From: an uncultured Eubacteriales bacterium
GTDB taxonomy: Bacteria > Acidobacteriota > Aminicenantia > Aminicenantales > Saccharicenantaceae
DNA: 64,000 nucleotides
Direction of reading: 5' to 3'
Assembly: GCA_964652895.1 (NCBI GenBank)
Contig: CAZZCH010000003.1
Span: 6,526-70,525 of the forward strand
The position numbers and the translations under genes were made by a program. Of this stretch, positions 354 to 47,201 are shown one piece after another (the first letter of the stretch is position 1; every line of letters begins with the position of its first letter). The notes under the pieces are model-generated. The model ran no database searches, was not told the DNA's origin, and saw only the letters and a program-made list of their open reading frames with translations.

Positions 354-1928
354 TCAATCCAGGCCGGGGACGATCTCCGAGAGCTTGATATCCTTCGACT
401 TCAGGTTGGTGCCCATCGATCTTTCGAGCGAAGCCAGCGAGACATTGTAGGAAACGATGGCATTGAGCTCGGAGATGCGGGCGTTGGCCAGGTCCCGCTG
501 GAATTGAAGGACAAAGTAGTTGGTGCTCAGCCCGACCCGGCGCTTCTCTTCCTCGGCCGCGAGCTTCTGTTCGGCCAGCTCGCGGGCCGTCGTGTAGGCC
601 AGGATCCTCTTGTAGTTGGCCTCGACGGACCGGACGGCGTTCTTGATCTCGAGATAGATCTGCTCCTTCTGGTTCTCGAGCTCGAGCATGGCCTGCCGCA
701 TGTTGAGCCGGGCCTGGGCCAGGTTCGCCTTGGAGAAGATGTTGGCCAGGGGGATGCTGAGCGTCAAACCCAGGTTCCAGTTCGGGTACTTGAAGTTGTA
801 GGTCTGATTTAGGGCGCCGCCAATCCCGCCGGGGATGGTGCTGATGACGTTGCCCCCGAGCGGGCCGAGCTCGTCATAGAAGAGCTGTGTCCCGTCGATG
901 CCGGGGGCATATAACGCCGCCGTGAGGTTGAGGTCGGGCATGTTCTGGTTCTTGGCGTAGCTGAGGTTGAGTTTTTCCGTTTCGAGTCCGATCCGGGAGA
1001 TCTCGAGGTCGTTCCTGTTCTGGATGGCCGTGGCCAGGGCTTCATCGAGGTCGACCGTTTTCTGGACGTACGTGGGCTTGTCCTTGGGCACGACGGCCGT
1101 GATCCTCTTGTCCTCGTCGCCGGTGATGTTGAGGAGGAGCCGGAGCTGGTCCTCGTTGCTCTGGATCTGGGTTTCCGCCTGGATGAGGTCGGCCTCGCGG
1201 GTGGCCACCTCGGCCCGGGCGCTCAGGACTTCCATGGGGGCCAGAGTGCCGACCTCGACCGACCGCTGGTTCTTCTCGAGGAGGTCCTTGGCGAGCTCGA
1301 GGGACTGGCGGCGCACATCGAGGTTCTCGATGCTGTAGACGAGATTCCAGTAGGCGCTCTCGACGTTGTAGACGGTGTCCGACAGCGTCTTCTTGAGACT
1401 CTCCTCCGAGACCCCGAGGTTGTTCATGGCCACCAGGATCTCCCGGCGGGCCATTTTGAAGCCGAAGTTCCGAAGGAGGGGTTGGCTGAAATTGAATCGG
1501 ACCGTCGTCCCGTAACGGGGGTTGATAGTCTGGCCGATACGGTTGGTCGCCGTTTTGTAGCCCGTGAAGTCGAGGCTGAACGTGCCTCCGGTCGGCAGGG
1601 TTTGGCTAGCATTGAGGAACGTGAAATTCTGGGTCTTGTCGACGAGGCTATCGGCCGCGTCGAGGTAGGAATAGGAGGCGTTCTCCGTGCTTCGGCTGCT
1701 AGCGCTCATGCTCAACGTCGGGATGTATTTTTCCTGGGCTCGGGTGACACCTTCTCTCGAGATATCAGGGCCGAGGACCTGGATGGCGACACCCAGGTTG
1801 TCCTTGAGAGCCTTGATGATGCATTCATCGAGGGACAACGACAGAGTGCCGTTGGCGTCCTGGCCGAAGCCGGGGGCCGCCAGGACGAGGGCGAGAACCA
1901 TCAGGGGGAATAGGGCTTTTTTTCTCAT
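354..1928 (-). CDS. TolC-family outer membrane efflux protein
   Basis: This is ORF 354..1949. It has a signal peptide (MRKKALFPLMVLALVLAAPGFGQ) and two TolC-like repeat halves with coiled-coil segments. Start was chosen at 1928 because GGAGA lies 6 nt upstream. It is the last gene of the exporter block. Confidence 0.85.
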   Translation of the reverse strand: MRKKALFPLMVLALVLAAPGFGQDANGTLSLSLDECIIKALKDNLGVAIQVLGPDISREGVTRAQEKYIPTLSMSASSRSTENASYSYLDAADSLVDKTQNFTFLNASQTLPTGGTFSLDFTGYKTATNRIGQTINPRYGTTVRFNFSQPLLRNFGFKMARREILVAMNNLGVSEESLKKTLSDTVYNVESAYWNLVYSIENLDVRRQSLELAKDLLEKNQRSVEVGTLAPMEVLSARAEVATREADLIQAETQIQSNEDQLRLLLNITGDEDKRITAVVPKDKPTYVQKTVDLDEALATAIQNRNDLEISRIGLETEKLNLSYAKNQNMPDLNLTAALYAPGIDGTQLFYDELGPLGGNVISTIPGGIGGALNQTYNFKYPNWNLGLTLSIPLANIFSKANLAQARLNMRQAMLELENQKEQIYLEIKNAVRSVEANYKRILAYTTARELAEQKLAAEEEKRRVGLSTNYFVLQFQRDLANARISELNAIVSYNVSLASLERSMGTNLKSKDIKLSEIVPGLD

Positions 1929-1979
1929 GTTCATTCTCCTTGTCTTCAACCGGCGGCTCTCCGAGGAGAGGGCCGGAGT

Positions 1980-3224
1980 TTATTCGTACCTCAGGGCTTC
2001 GATCGGGTCGAGCCGGGAGGCCTTCCGGGCCGGGTAGAACCCGAAGAAAATGCCGATCGTCGCGGCGAAGAAGAAGGCCATCAGGACCGACTGGAGGGAG
2101 ACGACGGTATTGAACGAGGCGAACATCGGGATCTTCTTGATGAGCTTGGACGCACCGACGCCGAAGGCGATGCCGATGAGCCCGCCCATCATGCTGAGGA
2201 CGATCGCCTCGGTCAGGAACTGGAGGAGGATGTCCCGCTCGCGGGCGCCGACGGCCATGCGCAGGCCGATCTCCCGGATCCTCTCCGTCACGGAGACCAG
2301 CATGATGTTCATGATCCCGATCCCGCCCACGAGGAGCGAGATGGAGGCGATGCTCCCGAGAAGGACGGTCATCATCTGGGTCGCCTGGGCGGCCGACTCC
2401 GCGATCTCGGACATGTTGCGGACGGTGAAATCGTCCTCCGCGCCGGGGGCAATCCTGTGCCGGACCCGGAGGAGCTCCTCGATCTGGGCCTGGGCCTGCG
2501 GCATTTGGTCCGACGAAACCGCCCGGACATCGATCGACTGGATATAGTCGATCCCCTGCAGCCGCCGCATGGCCGTCGTGTAGGGGATGGCGATCATGTC
2601 GTCCCGGCTGCCGAACCCGCCCGACTCGCCACGTTTTTTCAGGACGCCAAGGACCTTGAACGGGATCTTCTTGAGCCGGATGACCTTGCCGACCGGGTCG
2701 TCGTCCTCGAACAGGTTCGTCTTGACGTCGGCTCCGAGGACACAGACCTTGGCCGCGGACCTGACCTGGTTCTCATCGAAATAGCTGCCAAACTCGACGT
2801 CCCAGTTGCGGACTTCCGGATAGCGCTCCCCCGTGCCCGATATCGAGGTGTTCCAGTTCTTGTTGCCGTAGACCGTCTGGGCCCGGGCGCTGACGGAGGG
2901 CGAGACGTACATGACGGACGGGCACTGCTGCTCGATAGCCTGAGCATCTTCTGCCTTGAGCGTCGTTCGGCTGCCCCACCCGCCTTGGACACCCCTCGAG
3001 CTCGCGCTGCCCGGCGAAACGAAGAGAAGATTCGTGCCCATGGAGGCGAACCGGTCTTCGATGCCGCGCTTGGCCCCTTCGCCGATGCTGACCATGGCGA
3101 TCACGGCGCCGACGCCGATGATGATCCCCAGGGCCGTGAGGAACGACCTCATCTTGTTGCGGGCCAGGGCCCGGAAGGCCACCCGGCACGTTCTGATACC
3201 GTGCATGAGGGCTCGTTTGATCAT
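1980..3224 (-). CDS. MacB/FtsX-type ABC transporter permease
   Basis: The 414-aa product has an N-terminal TM helix (FLTALGIIIGVGAVIAMVSIG), a large periplasmic domain, and a C-terminal FtsX-type 3-TM bundle (RIREIGLRMAVGARERDILLQFLTEA). Confidence 0.9.
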   Translation of the reverse strand: MIKRALMHGIRTCRVAFRALARNKMRSFLTALGIIIGVGAVIAMVSIGEGAKRGIEDRFASMGTNLLFVSPGSASSRGVQGGWGSRTTLKAEDAQAIEQQCPSVMYVSPSVSARAQTVYGNKNWNTSISGTGERYPEVRNWDVEFGSYFDENQVRSAAKVCVLGADVKTNLFEDDDPVGKVIRLKKIPFKVLGVLKKRGESGGFGSRDDMIAIPYTTAMRRLQGIDYIQSIDVRAVSSDQMPQAQAQIEELLRVRHRIAPGAEDDFTVRNMSEIAESAAQATQMMTVLLGSIASISLLVGGIGIMNIMLVSVTERIREIGLRMAVGARERDILLQFLTEAIVLSMMGGLIGIAFGVGASKLIKKIPMFASFNTVVSLQSVLMAFFFAATIGIFFGFYPARKASRLDPIEALRYE

Positions 3225-3258
3225 GATGAATTCTCCTTCGCGGACCTTCCCTCCCGGG

Positions 3259-3948
3259 TCAAGACCGCTCTTCCCGCGTGATGAGGCCGTCCAAGAGGTA
3301 GATCCGTTTCCGGGCGAAGGCAGCGATGTCGGGTTCGTGGGTGACCATGACCATCGTCATGCCTTTCTCTTCGTTGAGCGACTTGAAGATGTTCATGATG
3401 TCCGAACTCGTCTTGCTGTCGAGATTGCCCGTCGGCTCGTCGGCCAGGATCAGGGTCGGGTTGTTGAGGAGCGCCCGGGCGATGGCCACCCGCTGCTGCT
3501 CGCCGCCGGAAAGCTGGTTCGTCTTGTGATGGGCCCTGTCCTTGAGACCGACGGCGGCGAGCGAGGCCATGGCCCGCTCCGCCATGTCTTTGCCGTTCGT
3601 CGCCGAGTAGAGAAGAGGCAACTCGGTGTTTTCCAGGGCCGTCGTCCGGGAGAGGAGGTTGAAGCTCTGGAAGACGAAACCGATCTTCTGGTTCCGGATG
3701 CGGGCCAGCTTGTTCTTATCGAACTTGGAGACCTCTTCTCCATCGAGGATGTATTCGCCCGAGGTCGGTTTGTCCAAGCAGCCGAGGATGTTCATCAGGG
3801 TCGACTTGCCGGACCCCGAAGATCCCATGACGGCCAGGAAGTCCCCTTTCTCGATCGTGTAGGACACGCCCCGCAGGGCGTCGACGTGGGTCTCGCCAAT
3901 ATAGTAGGTTTTGGCCAAATTCCGAAGCTCGATAATATTTCCAGCCAT
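3259..3948 (-). CDS. ABC transporter ATP-binding protein (MacB/LolD type)
   Basis: Walker A is GSSGSGKST, the ABC signature is LSGGEQQRVAIARAL, and Walker B is LILADEPTGNLD. Confidence 0.95.
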   Translation of the reverse strand: MAGNIIELRNLAKTYYIGETHVDALRGVSYTIEKGDFLAVMGSSGSGKSTLMNILGCLDKPTSGEYILDGEEVSKFDKNKLARIRNQKIGFVFQSFNLLSRTTALENTELPLLYSATNGKDMAERAMASLAAVGLKDRAHHKTNQLSGGEQQRVAIARALLNNPTLILADEPTGNLDSKTSSDIMNIFKSLNEEKGMTMVMVTHEPDIAAFARKRIYLLDGLITREERS

Positions 3949-7317: not shown

Positions 7318-7812
7318 ATGAAAAAAGCATTCGCACTCGCAGTCGGGATTCTTCTCGTCGGCTTCGCCTTCGCGGCGGCCCAGGAGAAGACCCAGGAACA
7401 GACCCAGGCCCAAGCCCAGGTCAAGGCTCAGGTCAAGGCTCAGGTCAAGGCCCAGAACAAAGTCCTGACGAAGCCCGCTTATCAGCACAGATTCGGGACC
7501 CTTTTCATCGACGAGAACGGGGACGGCATCAACGACGCCGCCCGTGACGCCGATGGCGACGGCATCCCCAACGGCCAGGACGCCGATTGGACCCGGCCGC
7601 TCGACGGATCCGGCTACAAGGACCAGAATCGCGTCGGCCGCCCGGACGATACGGAAATGACCCAGGGCCAGAAGGCCGGACAGCTCACCAAGGCCAACTT
7701 CGGCAAGGGCTCCTTCCGGCAGGGCACGATGGCCGCCGGACGGACGGCCGGGATCGGAGTGTGCGATGGCACCGGCCCCAAGGGCGCTGTACAGAGAAAG
7801 GGCCGCCGCTAA
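7318..7812 (+). CDS. small secreted protein with (QVKA)n repeat and two EF-hand/TSP3-like Ca-binding loops
   Basis: AGGAGG lies 7 nt upstream. The signal peptide is MKKAFALAVGILLVGFAFAAAQ. Ca-loop motifs are DENGDGINDAARDADGDGIPNGQDAD, and the C-terminus is basic (CDGTGPKGAVQRKGRR). Confidence 0.7.
   Translation: MKKAFALAVGILLVGFAFAAAQEKTQEQTQAQAQVKAQVKAQVKAQNKVLTKPAYQHRFGTLFIDENGDGINDAARDADGDGIPNGQDADWTRPLDGSGYKDQNRVGRPDDTEMTQGQKAGQLTKANFGKGSFRQGTMAAGRTAGIGVCDGTGPKGAVQRKGRR
7417..7452 (+). repeat. 3 x 12-nt in-frame tandem repeat
   Basis: The three copies are caggtcaaggct, caggtcaaggct and caggtcaaggcc, and they encode (QVKA)3. Confidence 0.9.
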
Positions 7813-7822
7813 GATTGCGAAG

Positions 7823-7860
7823 AGCCTCCTCTCCGCCCTCGCGAAGAGGAGGCTTTTTTT
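7823..7860 (+). terminator. intrinsic terminator after the secreted-protein gene
   Basis: A 10-bp perfect stem pairs AGCCTCCTCT (7823-7832) with AGAGGAGGCT (7845-7854) across a 12-nt loop, followed by a run of 7 T. Confidence 0.75.
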
Positions 7861-7885
7861 CTTGAAAGATCGGGGGTTTTACATC

Positions 7886-9094
7886 ATGATAATACGGAAG
7901 ATGCGCTTCATCGTTCCCGTTCTCCTGCTCCTGGCCATCTCGGCCGAGGGAGGCGTCGTTTACCTCTCTTTCAACCAGCACTCCACCCAGAACCTGTTCC
8001 AAACGAGAAACGCCGTAGCGGACCAGATCTCGGCGTTTTCGCTCTCCATCAACCAGGACTTTTCGGCGGTCTCGTTGCTCGCCGGCCTGCAGTACTCCGC
8101 CTTTCGCGAAATGTCCGGATTGAGCTCCTTCGGAGCGGACATCGGCCTGGATTATCTCAAACCCACCGGGGCGAAGAGTGCTTTTTACTTCGCCGCGGGC
8201 GGTTCCGGATTGTTCTATCGGCAGACCTATGAAGCCTTCAGCGCCCTGGGAGCCAACCTTCTGGCAGCCTTCAAGACCTACCTGGCGCCCTCTTCCATCT
8301 TGAAGCTCCAGGGACAGGGCGCTTACGCGGCCTACAAGGACTCCCTGTTCGATTTCGTGAGCACGACGGCCTCCCTTTCAATCGATAAATATTTCGCAAC
8401 CAGAACCACTTTTAAGGCGGACGCGGAATGGGGATACAAATATTTCCTCCATCCCTTCCTGCCGGAGCCGGTCGCGATAATCGCCGCGCCAGCCGGCATG
8501 GGAGCGGGAACGGGGAGCGGTTCCGGCCAGGGCTGGGGAGGCGCTGATTACCAGGGCGGCAACGGCTTCATTCCGCGCACTAACAGCGAGGGCGGCGGCG
8601 CAGGAATCGGCCATGTCTCCCTCTCCGTTCTCGCAGCCCAAGGCCTCGGAGACGTGGCCGGGCTGAGCGTGTCCGCCTTGAGGCAATGGATCGTGACGGG
8701 CGAAAACCCGTTCCTTTCGATCGAGGAATTCTACCTTGTGCAGAACCCCAGTTCGGACGCCTTCTCCTGGGACGGGAGCCAGTTCAACGGCCGGCTCACC
8801 TTGAACCTCCCCTGGAGCGTCGAGATCAAGGCCGGCTACACCTACGCCGACAAGACGTTCCCCGGAGTCGAAAGCCTGAGCCTTGAAGGAGAGCCGCTGG
8901 GGATCGTCCGGAACGACCTCCGGCATCTCGTCGAGGCCCGCGTCGAGAAGAACTTCCGCCGGGTCACGGTTTTCCTGGCCTTCTCGCGGGTCGACAATCG
9001 CTCGAGCGACCCGCTATTCGATTGGAAGGGCCATTACATCATGGGCGGGTTCGAGTGGAACCTGCCGACCGGCCGGAAGGGAGGCATCTCATGA
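7886..9094 (+). CDS. predicted outer-membrane beta-barrel protein, function unknown
   Basis: This is the internal ATG of ORF 7766..9094, placed after the terminator. The signal peptide is MIIRKMRFIVPVLLLLAISAEG. The sequence shows amphipathic alternating strands rich in Y/F/G/A and a G/S-rich loop. The C-terminal strand GGFEWNL is aromatic. Confidence 0.5.
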   Translation: MIIRKMRFIVPVLLLLAISAEGGVVYLSFNQHSTQNLFQTRNAVADQISAFSLSINQDFSAVSLLAGLQYSAFREMSGLSSFGADIGLDYLKPTGAKSAFYFAAGGSGLFYRQTYEAFSALGANLLAAFKTYLAPSSILKLQGQGAYAAYKDSLFDFVSTTASLSIDKYFATRTTFKADAEWGYKYFLHPFLPEPVAIIAAPAGMGAGTGSGSGQGWGGADYQGGNGFIPRTNSEGGGAGIGHVSLSVLAAQGLGDVAGLSVSALRQWIVTGENPFLSIEEFYLVQNPSSDAFSWDGSQFNGRLTLNLPWSVEIKAGYTYADKTFPGVESLSLEGEPLGIVRNDLRHLVEARVEKNFRRVTVFLAFSRVDNRSSDPLFDWKGHYIMGGFEWNLPTGRKGGIS

Positions 9095-41777: not shown

Positions 41778-43192
41778 CTCATCTCGGTCGTCGCGATGTT
41801 GACGAGCTTCATCGGGTAGGCGACGAGCAGGCCGGCCGCCAGGCCGAGGACGGCCAGGAGGGCGACGACGAAGACCATGGATTTCGTTTTCTCGGGGGCT
41901 GGATGCTTGAGCTCACCCAGGAAAACCAGGCTGAATACTCTGAACAGGTAGTACATCGTCAGGACGGCCGTAAAGAGGGCCAAGGCGGCGAGCCAGGTCT
42001 GGCCGGCCTGCACGGTCCCTATGATGACCAGGAATTTCGAGAAGAAGCCGCCGAAGGGCGGGATGCCGATGACCGAAAAAGCGCAGGCGAGGAAGGCGAC
42101 GGCCGTGACCGGCATGGTCTTGATCAGCCCGCCCATTTCCCGGATGTCCTTGGTGTGGACGGCGTGGATGACGATCCCGGCGCAGAGGAAGAGCCCCGCC
42201 TTGGCCAGCCCGTGCATCAGGATGAAGAGAAGCGACCCGGAGATGCCCGCGGCGTTCATCATGCTGAAGCCGAGGAAGATGTAGCCGATTTGGCTGATCG
42301 TCGAGTAGGCCAGGATTCTTTTAATGTCGTTCTCCACGGCGGCCGCGCCCGCCGCGACGAGGCTGGAGACCATGACGATGATGGGGATGGCCTGCTGCCA
42401 ACCCTCGGGCAGCCGGAAGGTATAGAGGAAGAGGCGGGCGAACGCGTAGACGCCGATCTTGACCAGGACGGCCGCGTGGAGCAGGGCCGTGACGGTCGTC
42501 GGCGCGATGCCGGCGTCCGGCAGCCAGGTGTGGAGCGGGATCGTGGCCGATTTCGAGAACATGCCAAAGAGGATGAACAGAACCGCCGTCCCCGGGACGA
42601 GCGTGCCGCGCATGACCGTGATGTCGAAGGTGTTGGTGAGGCCGTAGATCTGGATGAAGCCGAGGAGCATGACCACGGCGCCGAAGAACGTCACCAGGAA
42701 GGCCTTGTCGGCCTTGCGGACGTGGGCCGGCTCCCGGTAGAAACCGATGAGGCGCCAGCAGCTGATGCCGATGATCTCCCAGAAGAGGTAGAGGAAAATG
42801 AGGTTCCCGGAGAAGACCAGGCCCATCATCGCCCCGATGAAGAGCAAGACCATCAGGTAGTACTCGTTCTGATTCTCTTCCTTATGGATGTAGCCGACGG
42901 AGTAGACAACGATGAGAAAGCCGACGAACGACGACACCCCGGCCATGAAGATCGACAGCGGGTCGATGATCAGGACGAAGTCGAGGCCCAGTGCCAGGCT
43001 CTTGCGCACGACGAGCTCCCCCCCTTGGAGAGCGAGGGGGATCAGGGTCAGCGGCAGGACTGCCGTTACGGCGCTCACCAGGATGGACCAGATCGACCGG
43101 GCACGCCTGGACAACAGACCGGCCAGGGGGGCCGCGAACGAGCCGATGATGGGGACGAGGATCGTTAGGAGGACGATTGTTTCGGCATTCAT
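41762..43192 (-). CDS. antiporter-like subunit (NuoM/N, MrpD family)
   Basis: The 476-aa product has the core KSATIPLHTWLPDAGIAPTTVTALLHA...ILAYSTISQIGYI. It is the first gene of the operon. Confidence 0.85.
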   Translation of the reverse strand: MNAETIVLLTILVPIIGSFAAPLAGLLSRRARSIWSILVSAVTAVLPLTLIPLALQGGELVVRKSLALGLDFVLIIDPLSIFMAGVSSFVGFLIVVYSVGYIHKEENQNEYYLMVLLFIGAMMGLVFSGNLIFLYLFWEIIGISCWRLIGFYREPAHVRKADKAFLVTFFGAVVMLLGFIQIYGLTNTFDITVMRGTLVPGTAVLFILFGMFSKSATIPLHTWLPDAGIAPTTVTALLHAAVLVKIGVYAFARLFLYTFRLPEGWQQAIPIIVMVSSLVAAGAAAVENDIKRILAYSTISQIGYIFLGFSMMNAAGISGSLLFILMHGLAKAGLFLCAGIVIHAVHTKDIREMGGLIKTMPVTAVAFLACAFSVIGIPPFGGFFSKFLVIIGTVQAGQTWLAALALFTAVLTMYYLFRVFSLVFLGELKHPAPEKTKSMVFVVALLAVLGLAAGLLVAYPMKLVNIATTEMSWWLR

Positions 43193-43254: not shown

Positions 43255-43385
43255 GAATTTCCACATTCCATCCTCACTTTTATTAACAGATTTTCCAGGG
43301 GGCTTCAAACCGGGGCTTGGAATGGGTTGATTTTTCCCCTGGAATGTAGGATAAAAGGACGAATCCGCCGAGGAGAGTGAACAAC

Positions 43386-44510
43386 ATGCCCATCGAGATC
43401 CGCGAGGTCCTTTCCCGCAAGGACTTGAAGACATTCATCTACCTGCCCGAGAAGATCCACGCCGGGCACGAGAACTGGGTCCACCCCATCTACATGGACG
43501 ACTGGAAGTACTTCGACAAGAAGAAGAACAAAGCCTTCGGCTACTGCGACACGATCCTCCTCCTGGCCTGGAAGGACGGACGGCCCGTGGGCCGGGCCAT
43601 GGGCATCATCAACCACCGCTTCAACGAACACCGGAACGAAAAGACGGCCCGCTTCGGGTACCTGGACACCTACGAAGACAAGGAGGCGCTCCACGCCATC
43701 CTCGGTTTCATCGAGGACTGGGCCCGGGCCAAGGGCATGACCAAGATCGTCGGTCCCTACGGCTTCTCCGACCAGGACCCCGAAGGCTTCCTCATCGAGG
43801 GTTTCGAACACCGGGCGACCATCGCCACATACTACAATTTCGAATGGATGCCGCGGTTGCTCGAGGAGGGAGGCTACGCCAAGGATAACGACTGGTTCGT
43901 CTACAAGCTCGAAGTTCCCAAGGAGCTGCCGGAATTCTATAAAAAGATCTACGAGCGGGCCATGAAGCGCGGCACTTACGAGATCGTCGAGTTCCGCAAG
44001 AGGAAGGAGCTCAAGCCCTGGATCCGTCCCATCCTGTCGCTCATGAACGAGTGCTATATGGCGGGCAACATCTACGGCTTCGCCCCCCTCGGCGAGGAGG
44101 AGATGGACGACCTGGCCAAGCGCTACCTTCCCGTCGTCGACCCACGTTTTGTCAAGGCTATCAAGAAGGACGGGGACGTCGTGGCCTTCATCATCGCCAT
44201 GCCCGACATGACCGAGGGCATCGTCAAGGCCAAGGGCCGCCTTCTTCCCTTCGGGTTCATCCCTGTCCTTCGGGCGGCCAAGAAGACCAAGCAGCTCGAC
44301 CTCCTGCTCGGGGCCGTCAAAGAGCAGTACCGGGGCCAGGGCCTCGACGTCCTCATGGGCGTCAAGACCCTCATGTCCGCCCACGAGGCCGGCTACGAAA
44401 TGATGGACACCCACCACGAAATGGAAGCCAACGTCAAGGTCCGGGCCGAGATGGAGCGCATGGGCGGGACCATCTACAAGAAATACCGGGCCTTTTATAA
44501 GATGATCTAG
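43386..44510 (+). CDS. GNAT-like acyltransferase family protein (function uncertain)
   Basis: ATG at 43386 has GAGGAG 10 nt upstream, whereas the GTG at 43377 is only 2 nt after the GAGGAG, too close for an RBS. The C-terminal half has a GNAT-like pattern (VAFIIAMPD...QYRGQGLDVLM). The long ORF on the opposite strand is considered an artefact. Confidence 0.5.
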   Translation: MPIEIREVLSRKDLKTFIYLPEKIHAGHENWVHPIYMDDWKYFDKKKNKAFGYCDTILLLAWKDGRPVGRAMGIINHRFNEHRNEKTARFGYLDTYEDKEALHAILGFIEDWARAKGMTKIVGPYGFSDQDPEGFLIEGFEHRATIATYYNFEWMPRLLEEGGYAKDNDWFVYKLEVPKELPEFYKKIYERAMKRGTYEIVEFRKRKELKPWIRPILSLMNECYMAGNIYGFAPLGEEEMDDLAKRYLPVVDPRFVKAIKKDGDVVAFIIAMPDMTEGIVKAKGRLLPFGFIPVLRAAKKTKQLDLLLGAVKEQYRGQGLDVLMGVKTLMSAHEAGYEMMDTHHEMEANVKVRAEMERMGGTIYKKYRAFYKMI

Positions 44511-44578: not shown

Positions 44579-45820
44579 TCAACCGACGAACGACAGGGCG
44601 TAGGCCCCCGTCAGGAGGACGAGGACGGCGACGGTACCCCAGGAGAGGATGTTATAAACCCGGCCGTTCTTGTGCGTGCCCATGAGCTTCGGGCTGTTGA
44701 CCAGGATCAGCATAAAGACGAGGACGACCGGCAGGACGATGCCGTTGACCACCTGAGAGATGAGCATGACCCGGAAGAGGGGGATCCGGGGCAGGAGGAT
44801 GACGGCCGCCCCGAGGAAGACGAGGAGGGAATACAGGCCGTAGAATTGGGGCGCCTCCGAGAATTTCTTATTGACGCCGTTCTCCCAGCCCATGCCCTCG
44901 CAGACGAGGAAGGCCGTCGACAAGGGCAGGATCGAGGCGGCGAAGAGGGACGCGTTGAGGAGGCCGAAGGCGAAGAGGGCCGAGCAGTACTTCCCGGCCA
45001 GCGGTTTGAGCGCCAGGGCCGCGTCGGCCGCCGTCTCGACGCGGACGCCGGCCTTGAAGAGCGTGGCCGCGCACGTCAGGATGATGAACCCGGCCACGAT
45101 GGTCACGATGAAGCTGCCGATGATGACGTCCAGACGGGAATGCTTATAGTCCTTGACGGCGATGTTCTTCTCGACGACGGAAGACTGGAGGTAGAACTGC
45201 ATCCACGGGGCGATCGTCGTGCCGACCAGTCCGATGACCATTCCCAGCTGGCTCGGCGAGAAGGACAGGCTCGGCCGGACGAGGCTCGTTCCGATCGCCG
45301 CCCAGTCCGGCTTGGCCAGGATCCCCGAGATGATGTAGGTCACGTAGAAAAGACACGCGAACAGGAAGACCTTTTCGACGGACCGGTAATTGCCCTTGAC
45401 CACGAGCAGCCAGACGATGACGGCGCTCAGGGGGACGGAGATGAACTTGGAGACGTGGAAGATCTCCAGGCTTGAGGCGACGCCGGCGAACTCGGCGATG
45501 ACGTTGCCGAGGTTGGTCACGAATATGCCGAAGAGCAGGTAGACCGTGATCCTGACCCCGAAACGCTCGCGGATGAGGTCGGACAGACCCTTGCCGGTGA
45601 CGACGCCCATCCGGGCCGACATCTCCTGGATGATGATCAGGGCGGCCATGACCGGGATGAGGGTCCAGAGCAGGTTATTGCCGAAATGGGCTCCGGCCAT
45701 GGAATAGGTCGCGATGCCGCCCGCGTCGTTGTCGACGTTGGAGGTGATGATGCCGGGGCCCATGACGGCCAGGAAGAGCAGGAGGCCCCTCCAGCGGCGC
45801 TTGATCCCGTCCTTGATCAC
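44579..45820 (-). CDS. Nramp/SLC11-family transporter with non-canonical (NRMT-like, putative Mg2+) metal-site motifs
   Basis: The start codon is GTG. TM1 reads GPGIITSNVDNDAGGIAT, so DAGG replaces DPGN. TM6 reads GTTIAPWMQFYLQS, so T-x-x-A-P-W replaces A-x-x-M-P-H. The product has about 11 TM helices. Confidence 0.85.
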   Translation of the reverse strand: MIKDGIKRRWRGLLLFLAVMGPGIITSNVDNDAGGIATYSMAGAHFGNNLLWTLIPVMAALIIIQEMSARMGVVTGKGLSDLIRERFGVRITVYLLFGIFVTNLGNVIAEFAGVASSLEIFHVSKFISVPLSAVIVWLLVVKGNYRSVEKVFLFACLFYVTYIISGILAKPDWAAIGTSLVRPSLSFSPSQLGMVIGLVGTTIAPWMQFYLQSSVVEKNIAVKDYKHSRLDVIIGSFIVTIVAGFIILTCAATLFKAGVRVETAADAALALKPLAGKYCSALFAFGLLNASLFAASILPLSTAFLVCEGMGWENGVNKKFSEAPQFYGLYSLLVFLGAAVILLPRIPLFRVMLISQVVNGIVLPVVLVFMLILVNSPKLMGTHKNGRVYNILSWGTVAVLVLLTGAYALSFVG

Positions 45821-45866
45821 GGCCCACCCCCGGTTCCCGCGGCCTTCCGGCGGAGGCGGCGTTCGC

Positions 45867-47129
45867 TCATAGCTCTTCCGCCGTCGCCTGGACGATGTCC
45901 TGGAGGGTGATGATCCCCCGGATGACGAGGTCCCTGTCCACGACCGGGACGGCCAGGAATTTGTACTTGTTGAAGACGTCGGCGACCGTGGCGATGTCGT
46001 CGTCCGCCTCGACCATCAAGACATGGGGGTTCATGAGCGCCCCCAGCCTTTCCTCCCGGTTGCAGAGGAGGAGATGGCGGAGGGTGATGACCCCGGCCAG
46101 CCGCCGGTCCTCCCCGATCACATAGATGTAGGCGACCGTCTCCAGGGGGTGGACCGCATGGCGGAACGCTTCGACGGCGTCGGCGATCGTCCGGTCCCCG
46201 CCCAGGGCGAGGAAATCGGTGGTCATGATGCTCCCGGCCGTTCCCTCCTCGTGCTTCAGGAGACCCTCGACCTGCTCGCGGAAGGGCTTTTCCATCGTCC
46301 CGATGAAACGCTCCTTTTTCTCCTCCGGCAGGTCGGCGAGAAAGTCCCTGGCCTCGTCCGGCTCCATGCTCTCGAGGATGTCGGACGCCTGTTCGGGAGG
46401 GGCCGTCTCGATCAGGGACAGCTGCAGCCGGGGATCGACCTCTTGAAGAGTCTCCGCGGCGGTCTCCGTGTCCAGGGACCGGAAGACGGACGACCGGTTG
46501 GCCCGGTCGAGATCCTCGATGATGTCCGCGATATCCGAGGGGTGCAGATCGCGGAGCTTGCGCACGGTGACGTTCAGCTTGAGGTTCCTTTTCGGGTCGC
46601 TGGCCAGGGGTTGGACGAATTTCCAGGACGCCAGCTTCTCCGGGAGGCGGTAGGAGAAAAGCCAGTCCGAGGCGGCGTCGATCGCCCTCATCCAGCCGAG
46701 GCGGCGCAGGATACCGCGCATGCCGAAATCGACATGGGCGATGCGGAGCTCGCCATGGACGGCCAAAAGATGGATGTCGTTGACCCGCTCGATCTTGGCC
46801 CCGGAGGTGTCGACGACCTGTTTGTCGAGGAGGTCTTCCCGGAGCAGGATCTCCCGGCTCCCGACCTCGAGGGCGGTCAGTCGGCCGTCCGCGCCGGGTT
46901 TGAGGACGGCGGAGCGGCCGCGGATCGTTTCGACCCAGCTCCAGTCGAGGGCTCGGGCCGATTTCTCGTGCCGGCTGCGGATGACGAGGGAGTTGACCTT
47001 CGGGAAGAGCTCGCCCAGCTGGACCTTAAGGTCGGTCAGCCGGCCGCGGACTTTCCCCTCCGGGTCGGAAACGGGAAGGTCCAACAAATCGGAAAAATAG
47101 AGGAACATCTTCGAACCTTCGTCGTTCAT
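45867..47129 (-). CDS. soluble PRC-barrel / MgtE-N / CBS-pair protein (MgtE cytosolic sensor module without a membrane domain)
   Basis: The internal ATG at 47129 has GGAGAG 6 nt upstream. An MgtE-N-like acidic helical region is present (ETAAETLQEVDPRLQLSLIETAPPEQASDILESMEPDEARDFLADLPEEKK). It is followed by two CBS motifs, and the protein ends directly after them. Confidence 0.8.
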   Translation of the reverse strand: MNDEGSKMFLYFSDLLDLPVSDPEGKVRGRLTDLKVQLGELFPKVNSLVIRSRHEKSARALDWSWVETIRGRSAVLKPGADGRLTALEVGSREILLREDLLDKQVVDTSGAKIERVNDIHLLAVHGELRIAHVDFGMRGILRRLGWMRAIDAASDWLFSYRLPEKLASWKFVQPLASDPKRNLKLNVTVRKLRDLHPSDIADIIEDLDRANRSSVFRSLDTETAAETLQEVDPRLQLSLIETAPPEQASDILESMEPDEARDFLADLPEEKKERFIGTMEKPFREQVEGLLKHEEGTAGSIMTTDFLALGGDRTIADAVEAFRHAVHPLETVAYIYVIGEDRRLAGVITLRHLLLCNREERLGALMNPHVLMVEADDDIATVADVFNKYKFLAVPVVDRDLVIRGIITLQDIVQATAEEL

Positions 47130-47172
47130 CCGACGCTCTCCGAACCGCGATCCCGTACCGGACTTATGGGCC

Positions 47173-47201
47173 GTTATAGCACACGTTCGGGGAGGAGTAA
47201 A
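47173..47201 (-). promoter_or_regulatory. sigma-70-type promoter candidate for the CBS-protein/Nramp pair
   Basis: The minus strand reads TTTACT, a 17-nt spacer, then TATAAC, leaving a leader of only about 40 nt. Confidence 0.3.

Follow-up and report, generated by a model that had tools for sequence, protein, structure and literature searches.

A soluble MgtE-like partner protein with tandem PRC barrels encoded beside an NRMT-type transporter gene in an uncultured Aminicenantes-like bacterium

In this work we analyzed a gene pair located in a 64,000-nucleotide (nt) stretch of DNA (hereafter, the window) from the genome of an uncultured bacterium of the Aminicenantales (assembly GCA_964652895.1, contig CAZZCH010000003.1, positions 6,526 to 70,525). 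It is nearly certain that the first gene of the pair encodes the soluble MgtE-like partner (P0001) that accompanies transporter genes of the NRMT (NrmT) type, and that it forms, together with the gene of such a transporter (P0002), a two-gene unit behind a small promoter-like element of its own. As the best explanation of its function we propose, with a probability of about 0.55, that this nrmT-associated partner serves as a trans-acting cytoplasmic sensor of the NRMT carrier. The pairing and the idea of a sensor that regulates the transporter were already published in 2014 by Shin et al. (PLoS Genet 10:e1004429, PMC4072509). The details described here in addition are limited to the tandem PRC-barrel N-terminal half of the partner, the retained pattern of Mg2+ sites and the small conserved promoter-like element, and they are modest.

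Conservation of the gene pair

The first-pass annotation of the window, made from the sequence alone, had read the two genes as a possible hybrid Mg2+ uptake system and had named enrichment of the pairing across genomes as one of the points on which this idea depended; the result of that comparison was strongly positive. Eighty homologous loci were fetched, 76 of which had enough room to show the neighbor of the partner gene. An NRMT gene was located directly downstream, on the same strand, in 63 of these 76 loci, with gaps of 17-634 nt, and the linked loci came from Firmicutes, Acidobacteriota, Bacteroidota, Chloroflexota, Planctomycetota and methanogenic archaea. Among the remaining loci with room, the NRMT gene was found within 2.6-4.8 kb in two and directly upstream in one. 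We also surveyed 251 genomes, sampled evenly from the phylum to which the window belongs, counting as NRMT-type any Nramp protein at least 33% identical to P0002. A full-length partner was present in 64 of the sampled genomes, all of which carried an NRMT-type gene as well, in comparison to 3 of the 187 other genomes (Fisher p 1e-56). The two genes were adjacent in the partner-to-transporter order in 25 of the 64 pairs, adjacent in the reversed order in 14 and convergent in one; they lay within 0.8-7 kb of each other in 11 and were unlinked in 13.

For 58 adjacent pairs, the pairwise distances between partners correlated with those between transporters (Mantel r 0.86; none of 2000 permutations was as high). 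The correlation is consistent with joint inheritance of the two genes, but common ancestry by itself would also give one. Of the two proteins the partner is the faster to diverge (mean distance 0.62, against 0.45 for the transporter).

The 14 pairs in the reversed order belong to a second subclade (33-38% identity, with DAGG and TTIAPW motifs), which includes a genome of the same genus as the window. In that genome (locus L085, G167:C25:27500-32500) a 463-aa (amino acid) NRMT-type gene is followed by a 420-aa partner, 38% and 35% identical to the respective members of the window pair. The L085 genome has no pair of the window type, and the genome of the window has its own type only. Since each of the two holds a different subclade, it seems that the pair was replaced or laterally acquired within this genus. 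Within the phylum sample, the closest partner (58% identity) was found at another locus, L086 (G063:C57:31500-36500), where the partner at 1265-2533 (+) and the NRMT gene at 2556-3824 (-) are convergent and 22 nt apart. Adjacency was thus kept there in spite of an arrangement in which co-transcription is impossible.

Domain architecture of the partner and identity of the transporter

P0001 had initially been described as a PRC/MgtE-N/CBS module devoid of transmembrane segments and with two PRC-barrel-like segments, and both parts of this description were borne out. Pfam assigned MgtE_N (PF03448) to aa 195-295 (E 1.4e-26) and two CBS domains (PF00571, E 2.6e-19) to the region that follows. The Pfam PRC profile (PF05239) matched aa 97-137 just under its cut-off (19.9 versus 21.2 bits) and did not detect the first barrel of P0001 alone. 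At the level of the family, the same profile matched 42 of 46 homologues, with a best E of 1.2e-11, and the first ~95 aa of orthologues taken alone exceeded the cut-off (34.7, 23.7 and 22.1 bits). An AlphaFold model of aa 1-175 had a predicted local distance difference test score (pLDDT) of 91 and a predicted template-modelling score of 0.85. Its top structural match was the tandem-PRC protein CdpB1/CdpB2 (8QZO, E 7e-6, 141 columns), which covered both barrels, and further matches were the reaction-centre H subunits, MTH1859 and RimM, a ribosome maturation factor that contains a PRC barrel. On the basis of the family-level PRC matches and the structural model, we consider the two PRC barrels in the N-terminal half of P0001 real.

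A model of the complete protein, computed with the 46 homologues as input, had a mean pLDDT of 84. Its C-terminal half superposed on the Mg2+-bound cytosolic domain of MgtE (2YVY) with a root-mean-square deviation of 2.6 Å over 229 columns. In the sequence alignment, aa 191-415 corresponded to residues 24-251 of Thermus thermophilus MgtE (E 4e-32 to 2YVY) with no large gaps, and the C-terminus of P0001 was equivalent to Ala256 of that protein, where the plug helix is not yet reached. The NCBIfam mgtE profile TIGR00400 was accordingly matched at positions 25-251 of 450 only, with 171.2 bits against an equivalog cut-off of 232.75. A membrane segment was not found in P0001, either as a 19-residue window at a Kyte-Doolittle value of 1.6 or as a match to the MgtE membrane domain PF01769.

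The transporter P0002 was aligned with EleNRMT of Eggerthella lenta (PDB 7QIA), for which transport of Mg2+ and Mn2+ was demonstrated by Ramanadane et al. in 2022 (PMC8806188), with an E value of 2e-119 over aa 8-408. The NRMT signature within the SLC11/Nramp family comprises a retained Asp and an Asn-to-Gly change in transmembrane helix (TM) 1, Ala-to-Thr, Met-to-Ala and His-to-Trp changes in TM6, and a Gln in TM10 (PMC8806188). P0002 has this signature, and its site motifs are identical to those of 7QIA, namely NDAGG in TM1, GTTIAPWM in TM6 and the Gln of TM10 (SQVVNG aligned). Proton-uncoupled transport of Mg2+ by P0002 is a prediction drawn from its similarity to EleNRMT only.

Conserved residues and retained metal and ATP sites

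The roles of the individual Mg2+ sites were taken from Maruyama et al. 2018 (PMC5882242), their positions were transferred through the alignment of P0001 with T. thermophilus MgtE, and conservation was counted over the 46 homologues. Both ligands of Mg4 are retained, D258 (MgtE D91) being present in 42 and D411 (MgtE D247) in 43 of the homologues. The Mg6 ligand D262 (MgtE D95) is D or E in 45, and the Mg7 ligand E226 (MgtE E59) is E or D in 42.

In T. thermophilus MgtE, ATP is contacted by Y170, R187, D188, N203 and F227 (Tomita et al. 2017, PMC5529423). Four of these five side chains are kept in P0001 as Y334, R351, N367 and F391 (equivalent to Y170, R187, N203 and F227), and D188 is replaced by H352. 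Binding of ATP by the CBS pair of P0001 would be plausible with this set of residues. It is not a trait of the family, since the stacking Phe (the F227 equivalent) is Leu in 33 of the 46 homologues and the ribose-binding Asp varies.

Two parts of the protein are the most conserved in the family: the second PRC barrel together with its helical hairpin, and the MgtE_N domain. In the former, residues D102, Q104, D107, G110, R115, V116, N117, D118, D134, G136, G139, R142, R143 and W169 are invariant or nearly so, a pattern of the kind that might be expected of a docking surface.

Genome content and distribution of homologues

The assembly that contains the window has 3.47 Mb and is 95% complete. 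No match to PF01769 was found in six frames of the whole genome, and the single MgtE_N match in the genome is the partner gene. A frameshifted MgtE membrane domain hidden downstream, which the first-pass annotation had named among the findings that would speak against its reading, was looked for in this six-frame search and is present neither downstream nor elsewhere; the next gene begins only 46 nt after the partner. More than 100 database proteins of 413-459 aa have the same domain set at 60-88% identity, and the closest loci (69-75% identity) are from Candidatus Aminicenantes genomes. Full-length homologues at 30-39% identity were found in Clostridia, Erysipelotrichaceae, Terriglobales, Bacteroidota, Anaerolineae, Planctomycetota, Kapaibacteria, Syntrophaceae and three methanogen families. 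Some partner genes are flanked by long open frames (up to 711 aa), which we considered as C-terminal extensions and rejected, as they are overlaps with the neighboring gene. Because the genome is without any MgtE pore domain, and given the widely conserved ~420-aa architecture, the partner gene is not a broken mgtE.

Comparison with known systems

Shin et al. discovered NrmT through M-box riboswitches lying upstream of genes related to Nramp, described a conserved "MgtE-like fragment" beside the nrmT genes, and speculated that it had a role in cytoplasmic feedback regulation or as a chaperone (PMC4072509). Neither PRC nor CBS domains are mentioned in the text of that paper. In the later NRMT literature that we examined the partner protein is not discussed, and no combination of MgtE, a PRC barrel and CBS was found in the searchable literature. 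The nrmT operons of the 2014 study (Ca_c0685 in C. acetobutylicum, ACP_2976/ACP_2977 in A. capsulatum) have, like the window, a separate gene for an MgtE cytoplasmic domain beside a transporter with the NRMT site. The A. capsulatum operon also shares the gene order of the window, and the M-box is absent from both. What distinguishes the window pair from these operons is the N-terminal 175 aa of its partner, recognized here as a conserved tandem PRC barrel, and its origin in an uncultured Aminicenantes-like genome, directly after polA.

The cytosolic domain of T. thermophilus MgtE (2YVY, 2YVX, 5X9G) and P0001 have in common the fold of the N domain and CBS pair, the ligands of Mg4, Mg6 and Mg7, and most of the side chains that contact ATP in MgtE. 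P0001 differs in having neither the plug helix nor the five-helix pore, in the replacement of Mg5 and absence of Mg2 and Mg3, and in ~190 extra N-terminal residues that form the PRC barrels. Unlike in MgtE, any regulation by P0001 must act in trans, on a LeuT-fold carrier. EleNRMT was characterized alone, in the absence of a partner. Two consecutive PRC barrels are also present in CdpB1/CdpB2 of archaeal cell division (8QZO, 8ONW), where they mediate protein-protein contacts; however, the sequence identity to P0001 is 17-20%, the process is unrelated, and CdpB has neither MgtE_N nor CBS.

Proposed function of the partner and alternative explanations

It is a reasonable reading of these data that an MgtE-type sensor may regulate a transporter of an unrelated fold. 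In such a mechanism, cytosolic Mg2+ would fill the retained inter-domain sites (Mg4, D258/D411; Mg6, D262; Mg7, E226), upon which MgtE_N would clamp onto the CBS pair. Mn2+ may trigger the same closure, and in the clade of the window the response may be tuned by ATP at the CBS pair. The conformational change would then pass to the NRMT carrier via a docking surface and lower the uptake when the cell is replete, as a negative feedback like that exerted in cis by the same module on the MgtE pore. The tandem PRC barrel would be the likeliest docking module, in place of the absent plug helix and membrane domain, because its second half belongs to the most conserved parts of the family. The conserved linkage of the genes, the retained Mg2+-ligand residues and the M-box control of orthologous Firmicutes operons support the sensor function, as does the close relationship of P0002 to EleNRMT. 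A more specific form of the proposal is that the partner is a detachable trans-acting gate, in which the PRC barrel replaces the plug helix, docks on the LeuT-fold carrier and closes it when the cell is replete. The cluster D107/N117/D118/R142 and the GxRGxLRRLG hairpin are the candidate docking surface. This picture is tentative and we would put it below even odds; if it is true, one sensor lineage controls two unrelated transporter architectures.

Several observations weigh against the proposed sensor function. In ten of the 76 loci with room there is no Nramp gene within 6 kb; most of these are Terriglobales/Sulfotelmatobacter loci in which the partner gene lies beside a UbiD-like gene. About a fifth of the partner genes in the phylum sample are likewise unlinked from the transporter. 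On the side of the protein, the Mg5 ligands D226/D250 of MgtE are lost (K390 and Q414 in P0001, mostly N/K and E/Q in the family), and with the plug helix the sites Mg2 and Mg3 (plug-helix ligands E258 and D259) are missing as well. The genome carries two CorA homologues, and the NRMT pair is thus not its sole route for Mg2+. Natural fusions of the two proteins were considered as evidence of direct contact and rejected, being very rare and resembling products of deletion or rearrangement. From earlier experiments it is known that the C. acetobutylicum NrmT (Shin et al. 2014, PMC4072509) and the purified EleNRMT (PMC8806188) transport without a partner. In the one published experiment on such a pair, a B. 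subtilis mutant defective in Mg2+ transport was rescued no better when the A. capsulatum partner was expressed along with its transporter (PMC4072509), a negative result that weighs little, since a low-Mg2+ rescue assay cannot reveal an inhibitor. Moreover, rescue by the A. capsulatum transporter was better for a Mn2+ defect than for the Mg2+ defect (PMC4072509), which makes the ion sensed by the partner uncertain too.

This uncertainty leads to an alternative in which the partner senses a signal other than Mg2+, either Mn2+ or the adenylate charge via the CBS pair, and tunes the carrier accordingly. The A. capsulatum NrmT behaved mainly as an importer of Mn2+ and is encoded in an operon without an M-box (PMC4072509), the operon of the window lacks an M-box too, and P0001 keeps four of the five ATP-contact side chains (Y334, R351, N367 and F391). 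However, the ligands of Mg4, Mg6 and Mg7 are retained family-wide, the substitutions of the stacking Phe and ribose-binding Asp deprive the family of ATP binding as a common trait, and the orthologous Firmicutes operons respond to Mg2+ through their M-boxes; we therefore regard sensing of another signal as unlikely. Rather less credit can be given to the other suggestion of Shin et al. (PMC4072509), a cytoplasmic chaperone or buffer for Mg2+/Mn2+ that would take the metal from the inward-facing carrier or store it on its acidic surface, with no gating. Such a role would account for the conserved linkage just as well, and the protein is acidic (73 D+E versus 55 K+R) with several low-affinity acidic metal sites kept. 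Against it, the affinity of the MgtE sites lies in the millimolar range, which is also the concentration of free Mg2+, and a Mg2+ chaperone would have little to do. The sites retained in P0001 are the inter-domain ones that drive the conformational switch of MgtE (PMC5882242), and the best-conserved regions include the non-acidic second PRC barrel with its helical part, suggestive of a protein-protein interface.

A function on the level of expression, with the PRC barrels binding RNA, ribosomes or another protein, or in a process unrelated to the carrier, could be imagined from CdpB1/B2 and RimM, in which PRC barrels serve to bind proteins or ribosomes, as well as from the partner genes unlinked from any Nramp gene. 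It appears very improbable, given that every partner-bearing genome of the phylum sample has an NRMT-type gene and that adjacency outlasts both reversal of the gene order and strand inversion; also, no DNA- or RNA-binding domain was detected in P0001 by Pfam and NCBIfam searches. The clear homology of the C-terminal 230 aa to the MgtE cytosolic domain might finally suggest a decaying mgtE remnant or a split gene with the pore half elsewhere. Decay is effectively excluded, and the split gene deserves hardly any weight, as none of the six frames of the genome contains an MgtE membrane domain. Across many phyla, and at identities between 88% and 30%, the 420-aa architecture is preserved; it includes invariant residues, and internal stops are absent. 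The gene also has its own Shine-Dalgarno sequence and a conserved promoter-like element.

Among the known classes of bacterial Mg2+ importers, the NRMT carriers are the fourth, and their soluble partner is near-universal. If the partner gates the carrier, as we propose for the trans-acting sensor, the pair would clearly exemplify the transfer of a regulatory module from a channel to a carrier of unrelated fold, on which it acts as a separate subunit. The window itself adds no new principle, being another clean two-gene example without a riboswitch. Experiments could be guided by two details: outside the MgtE-like region, the conserved part is a tandem PRC barrel, and the inter-domain sites that are retained are Mg4, Mg6 and Mg7.

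Organization of the two-gene unit and its upstream region

The features of the unit are listed in Table 1. The spacing of 46 nt between the partner and the NRMT-like gene, noted in the first-pass annotation along with an apparent two-gene operon, was confirmed, with both genes on the same strand, the transporter starting from the GTG at 45820 and its product carrying the NRMT site. A 377-aa gene at 43377-44510 (+) converges on the P0002 gene and ends 68 nt from its stop. Because of this convergent gene the unit is limited to two genes with no third small open reading frame (ORF) behind the transporter; a small membrane protein as a third operon member was considered and rejected, as there is neither room nor an ORF for it.

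Table 1. Features of the partner-transporter unit (positions in the window; domain boundaries also in aa of P0001).
Feature	Position	Strand	Description and basis
Promoter-like element	47173..47201	-	TTTACT (47201-47196), 17-nt spacer, extended -10 TGCTATAAC (47181-47173); sequence and conservation
Shine-Dalgarno	47136..47141	-	GGAGAG, 6 nt before the ATG at 47129; sequence
Partner gene (P0001)	45867..47129	-	420-aa soluble PRC-PRC-MgtE_N-CBS-CBS protein, "MgtE-like partner" of NRMT
First PRC-barrel-like domain, aa 8-95	46845..47108	-	Model beta-barrel with pLDDT >90; orthologous segments above the Pfam PRC cut-off
Second PRC barrel and helical hairpin, aa 96-170	46620..46844	-	Pfam PRC aa 97-137; alignment conservation
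MgtE_N helical domain, aa 191-295	46245..46559	-	Pfam and alignment to T. thermophilus MgtE
CBS pair, aa 296-415	45885..46244	-	Pfam and alignment to T. thermophilus MgtE
Intergenic spacer	45821..45866	-	46 nt, G-rich ribosome-binding stretch GGGGGTGGG before the transporter GTG; sequence
NRMT-type Nramp gene (P0002), 413 aa	44579..45820	-	GTG start at 45820; PF01566, E 1.4e-99

The gap between the polA stop (TAG, 47217-47215) and the ATG of the partner gene is 85 nt long. A scan of this gap for consensus promoters reported nothing; it was silent on the promoter-like element since the -10 of the latter ends in C. Both hexamers and the TG are kept in three Aminicenantes loci (L001, L002 and L004), which also have the polA-partner order, while the surrounding intergenic bases differ, and from this conservation the element probably functions as a promoter. 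It would give a leader of ~37 nt. The earlier estimate of a leader of about 40 nt, too short for an M-box, is in agreement with this length and with the lack of an Rfam match: Rfam families, including the M-box, gave no match at E <= 1 between positions 43000 and 51000 of the window, and the M-box (RF00380) had no match anywhere in the genome. Control by an M-box or another riboswitch was rejected on these grounds. A leader peptide or a terminator in the 85-nt gap was rejected as well, as the gap holds the promoter-like element and the Shine-Dalgarno sequence only.

In L001, L002 and L004 the polA stop is followed by TTTACT, a 17-nt spacer and TGCTATAA(C/G), with the ATG ~8 nt past the -10. 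As the start codon comes so soon after the -10, the partner mRNA may be leaderless in these relatives. The window has ~33 extra bases between the -10 and the ATG in comparison to them, and these carry the GGAGAG Shine-Dalgarno sequence.

The situation is different in Firmicutes, where a full-length M-box (131-154 bits) was found directly upstream of the partner gene in five of the seven loci tested. These five (L009, L014, L021, L025 and L032; Clostridium, Desulfotomaculum) have the M-box ~120-430 nt upstream of the partner. No M-box was found in the tested loci of Mahella and Erysipelotrichaceae, nor in those of Aminicenantes, Acidobacteriaceae, Bacteroidota and Methanotrichaceae.

Fused genes and unusual neighborhoods

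The fusions were searched for with the partner and the transporter joined end to end as the query, and three of the 406 matches (P0122, P0123 and P0128) were fused ORFs. In P0128, "ETAG" of the partner runs directly into "GITTYS" of the carrier, with deletion of the metal-binding Asp of TM1 as well as the CBS pair. P0122 (L083:3001-4818) begins in the middle of MgtE_N. P0123 (L082:1601-4504, 967 aa), known from one scaffold, adjoins a transposase gene and consists of PRC, MgtE_N, CBS, an MgtE-like plug and about three hydrophobic helices, followed by the carrier, which this number of helices would misorient. In the window the partner and transporter genes are in different reading frames; 12 homologous loci have both in one frame.

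As to the neighborhoods, in five of the Terriglobales/Sulfotelmatobacter loci with orphan partners (L028, L030, L039, L068 and L075) the next gene, at about 7370-9030, encodes a UbiD-like decarboxylase of ~540 aa. At the locus L069, a gene for an 805-aa FtsX-type permease is located between the partner and the NRMT gene.

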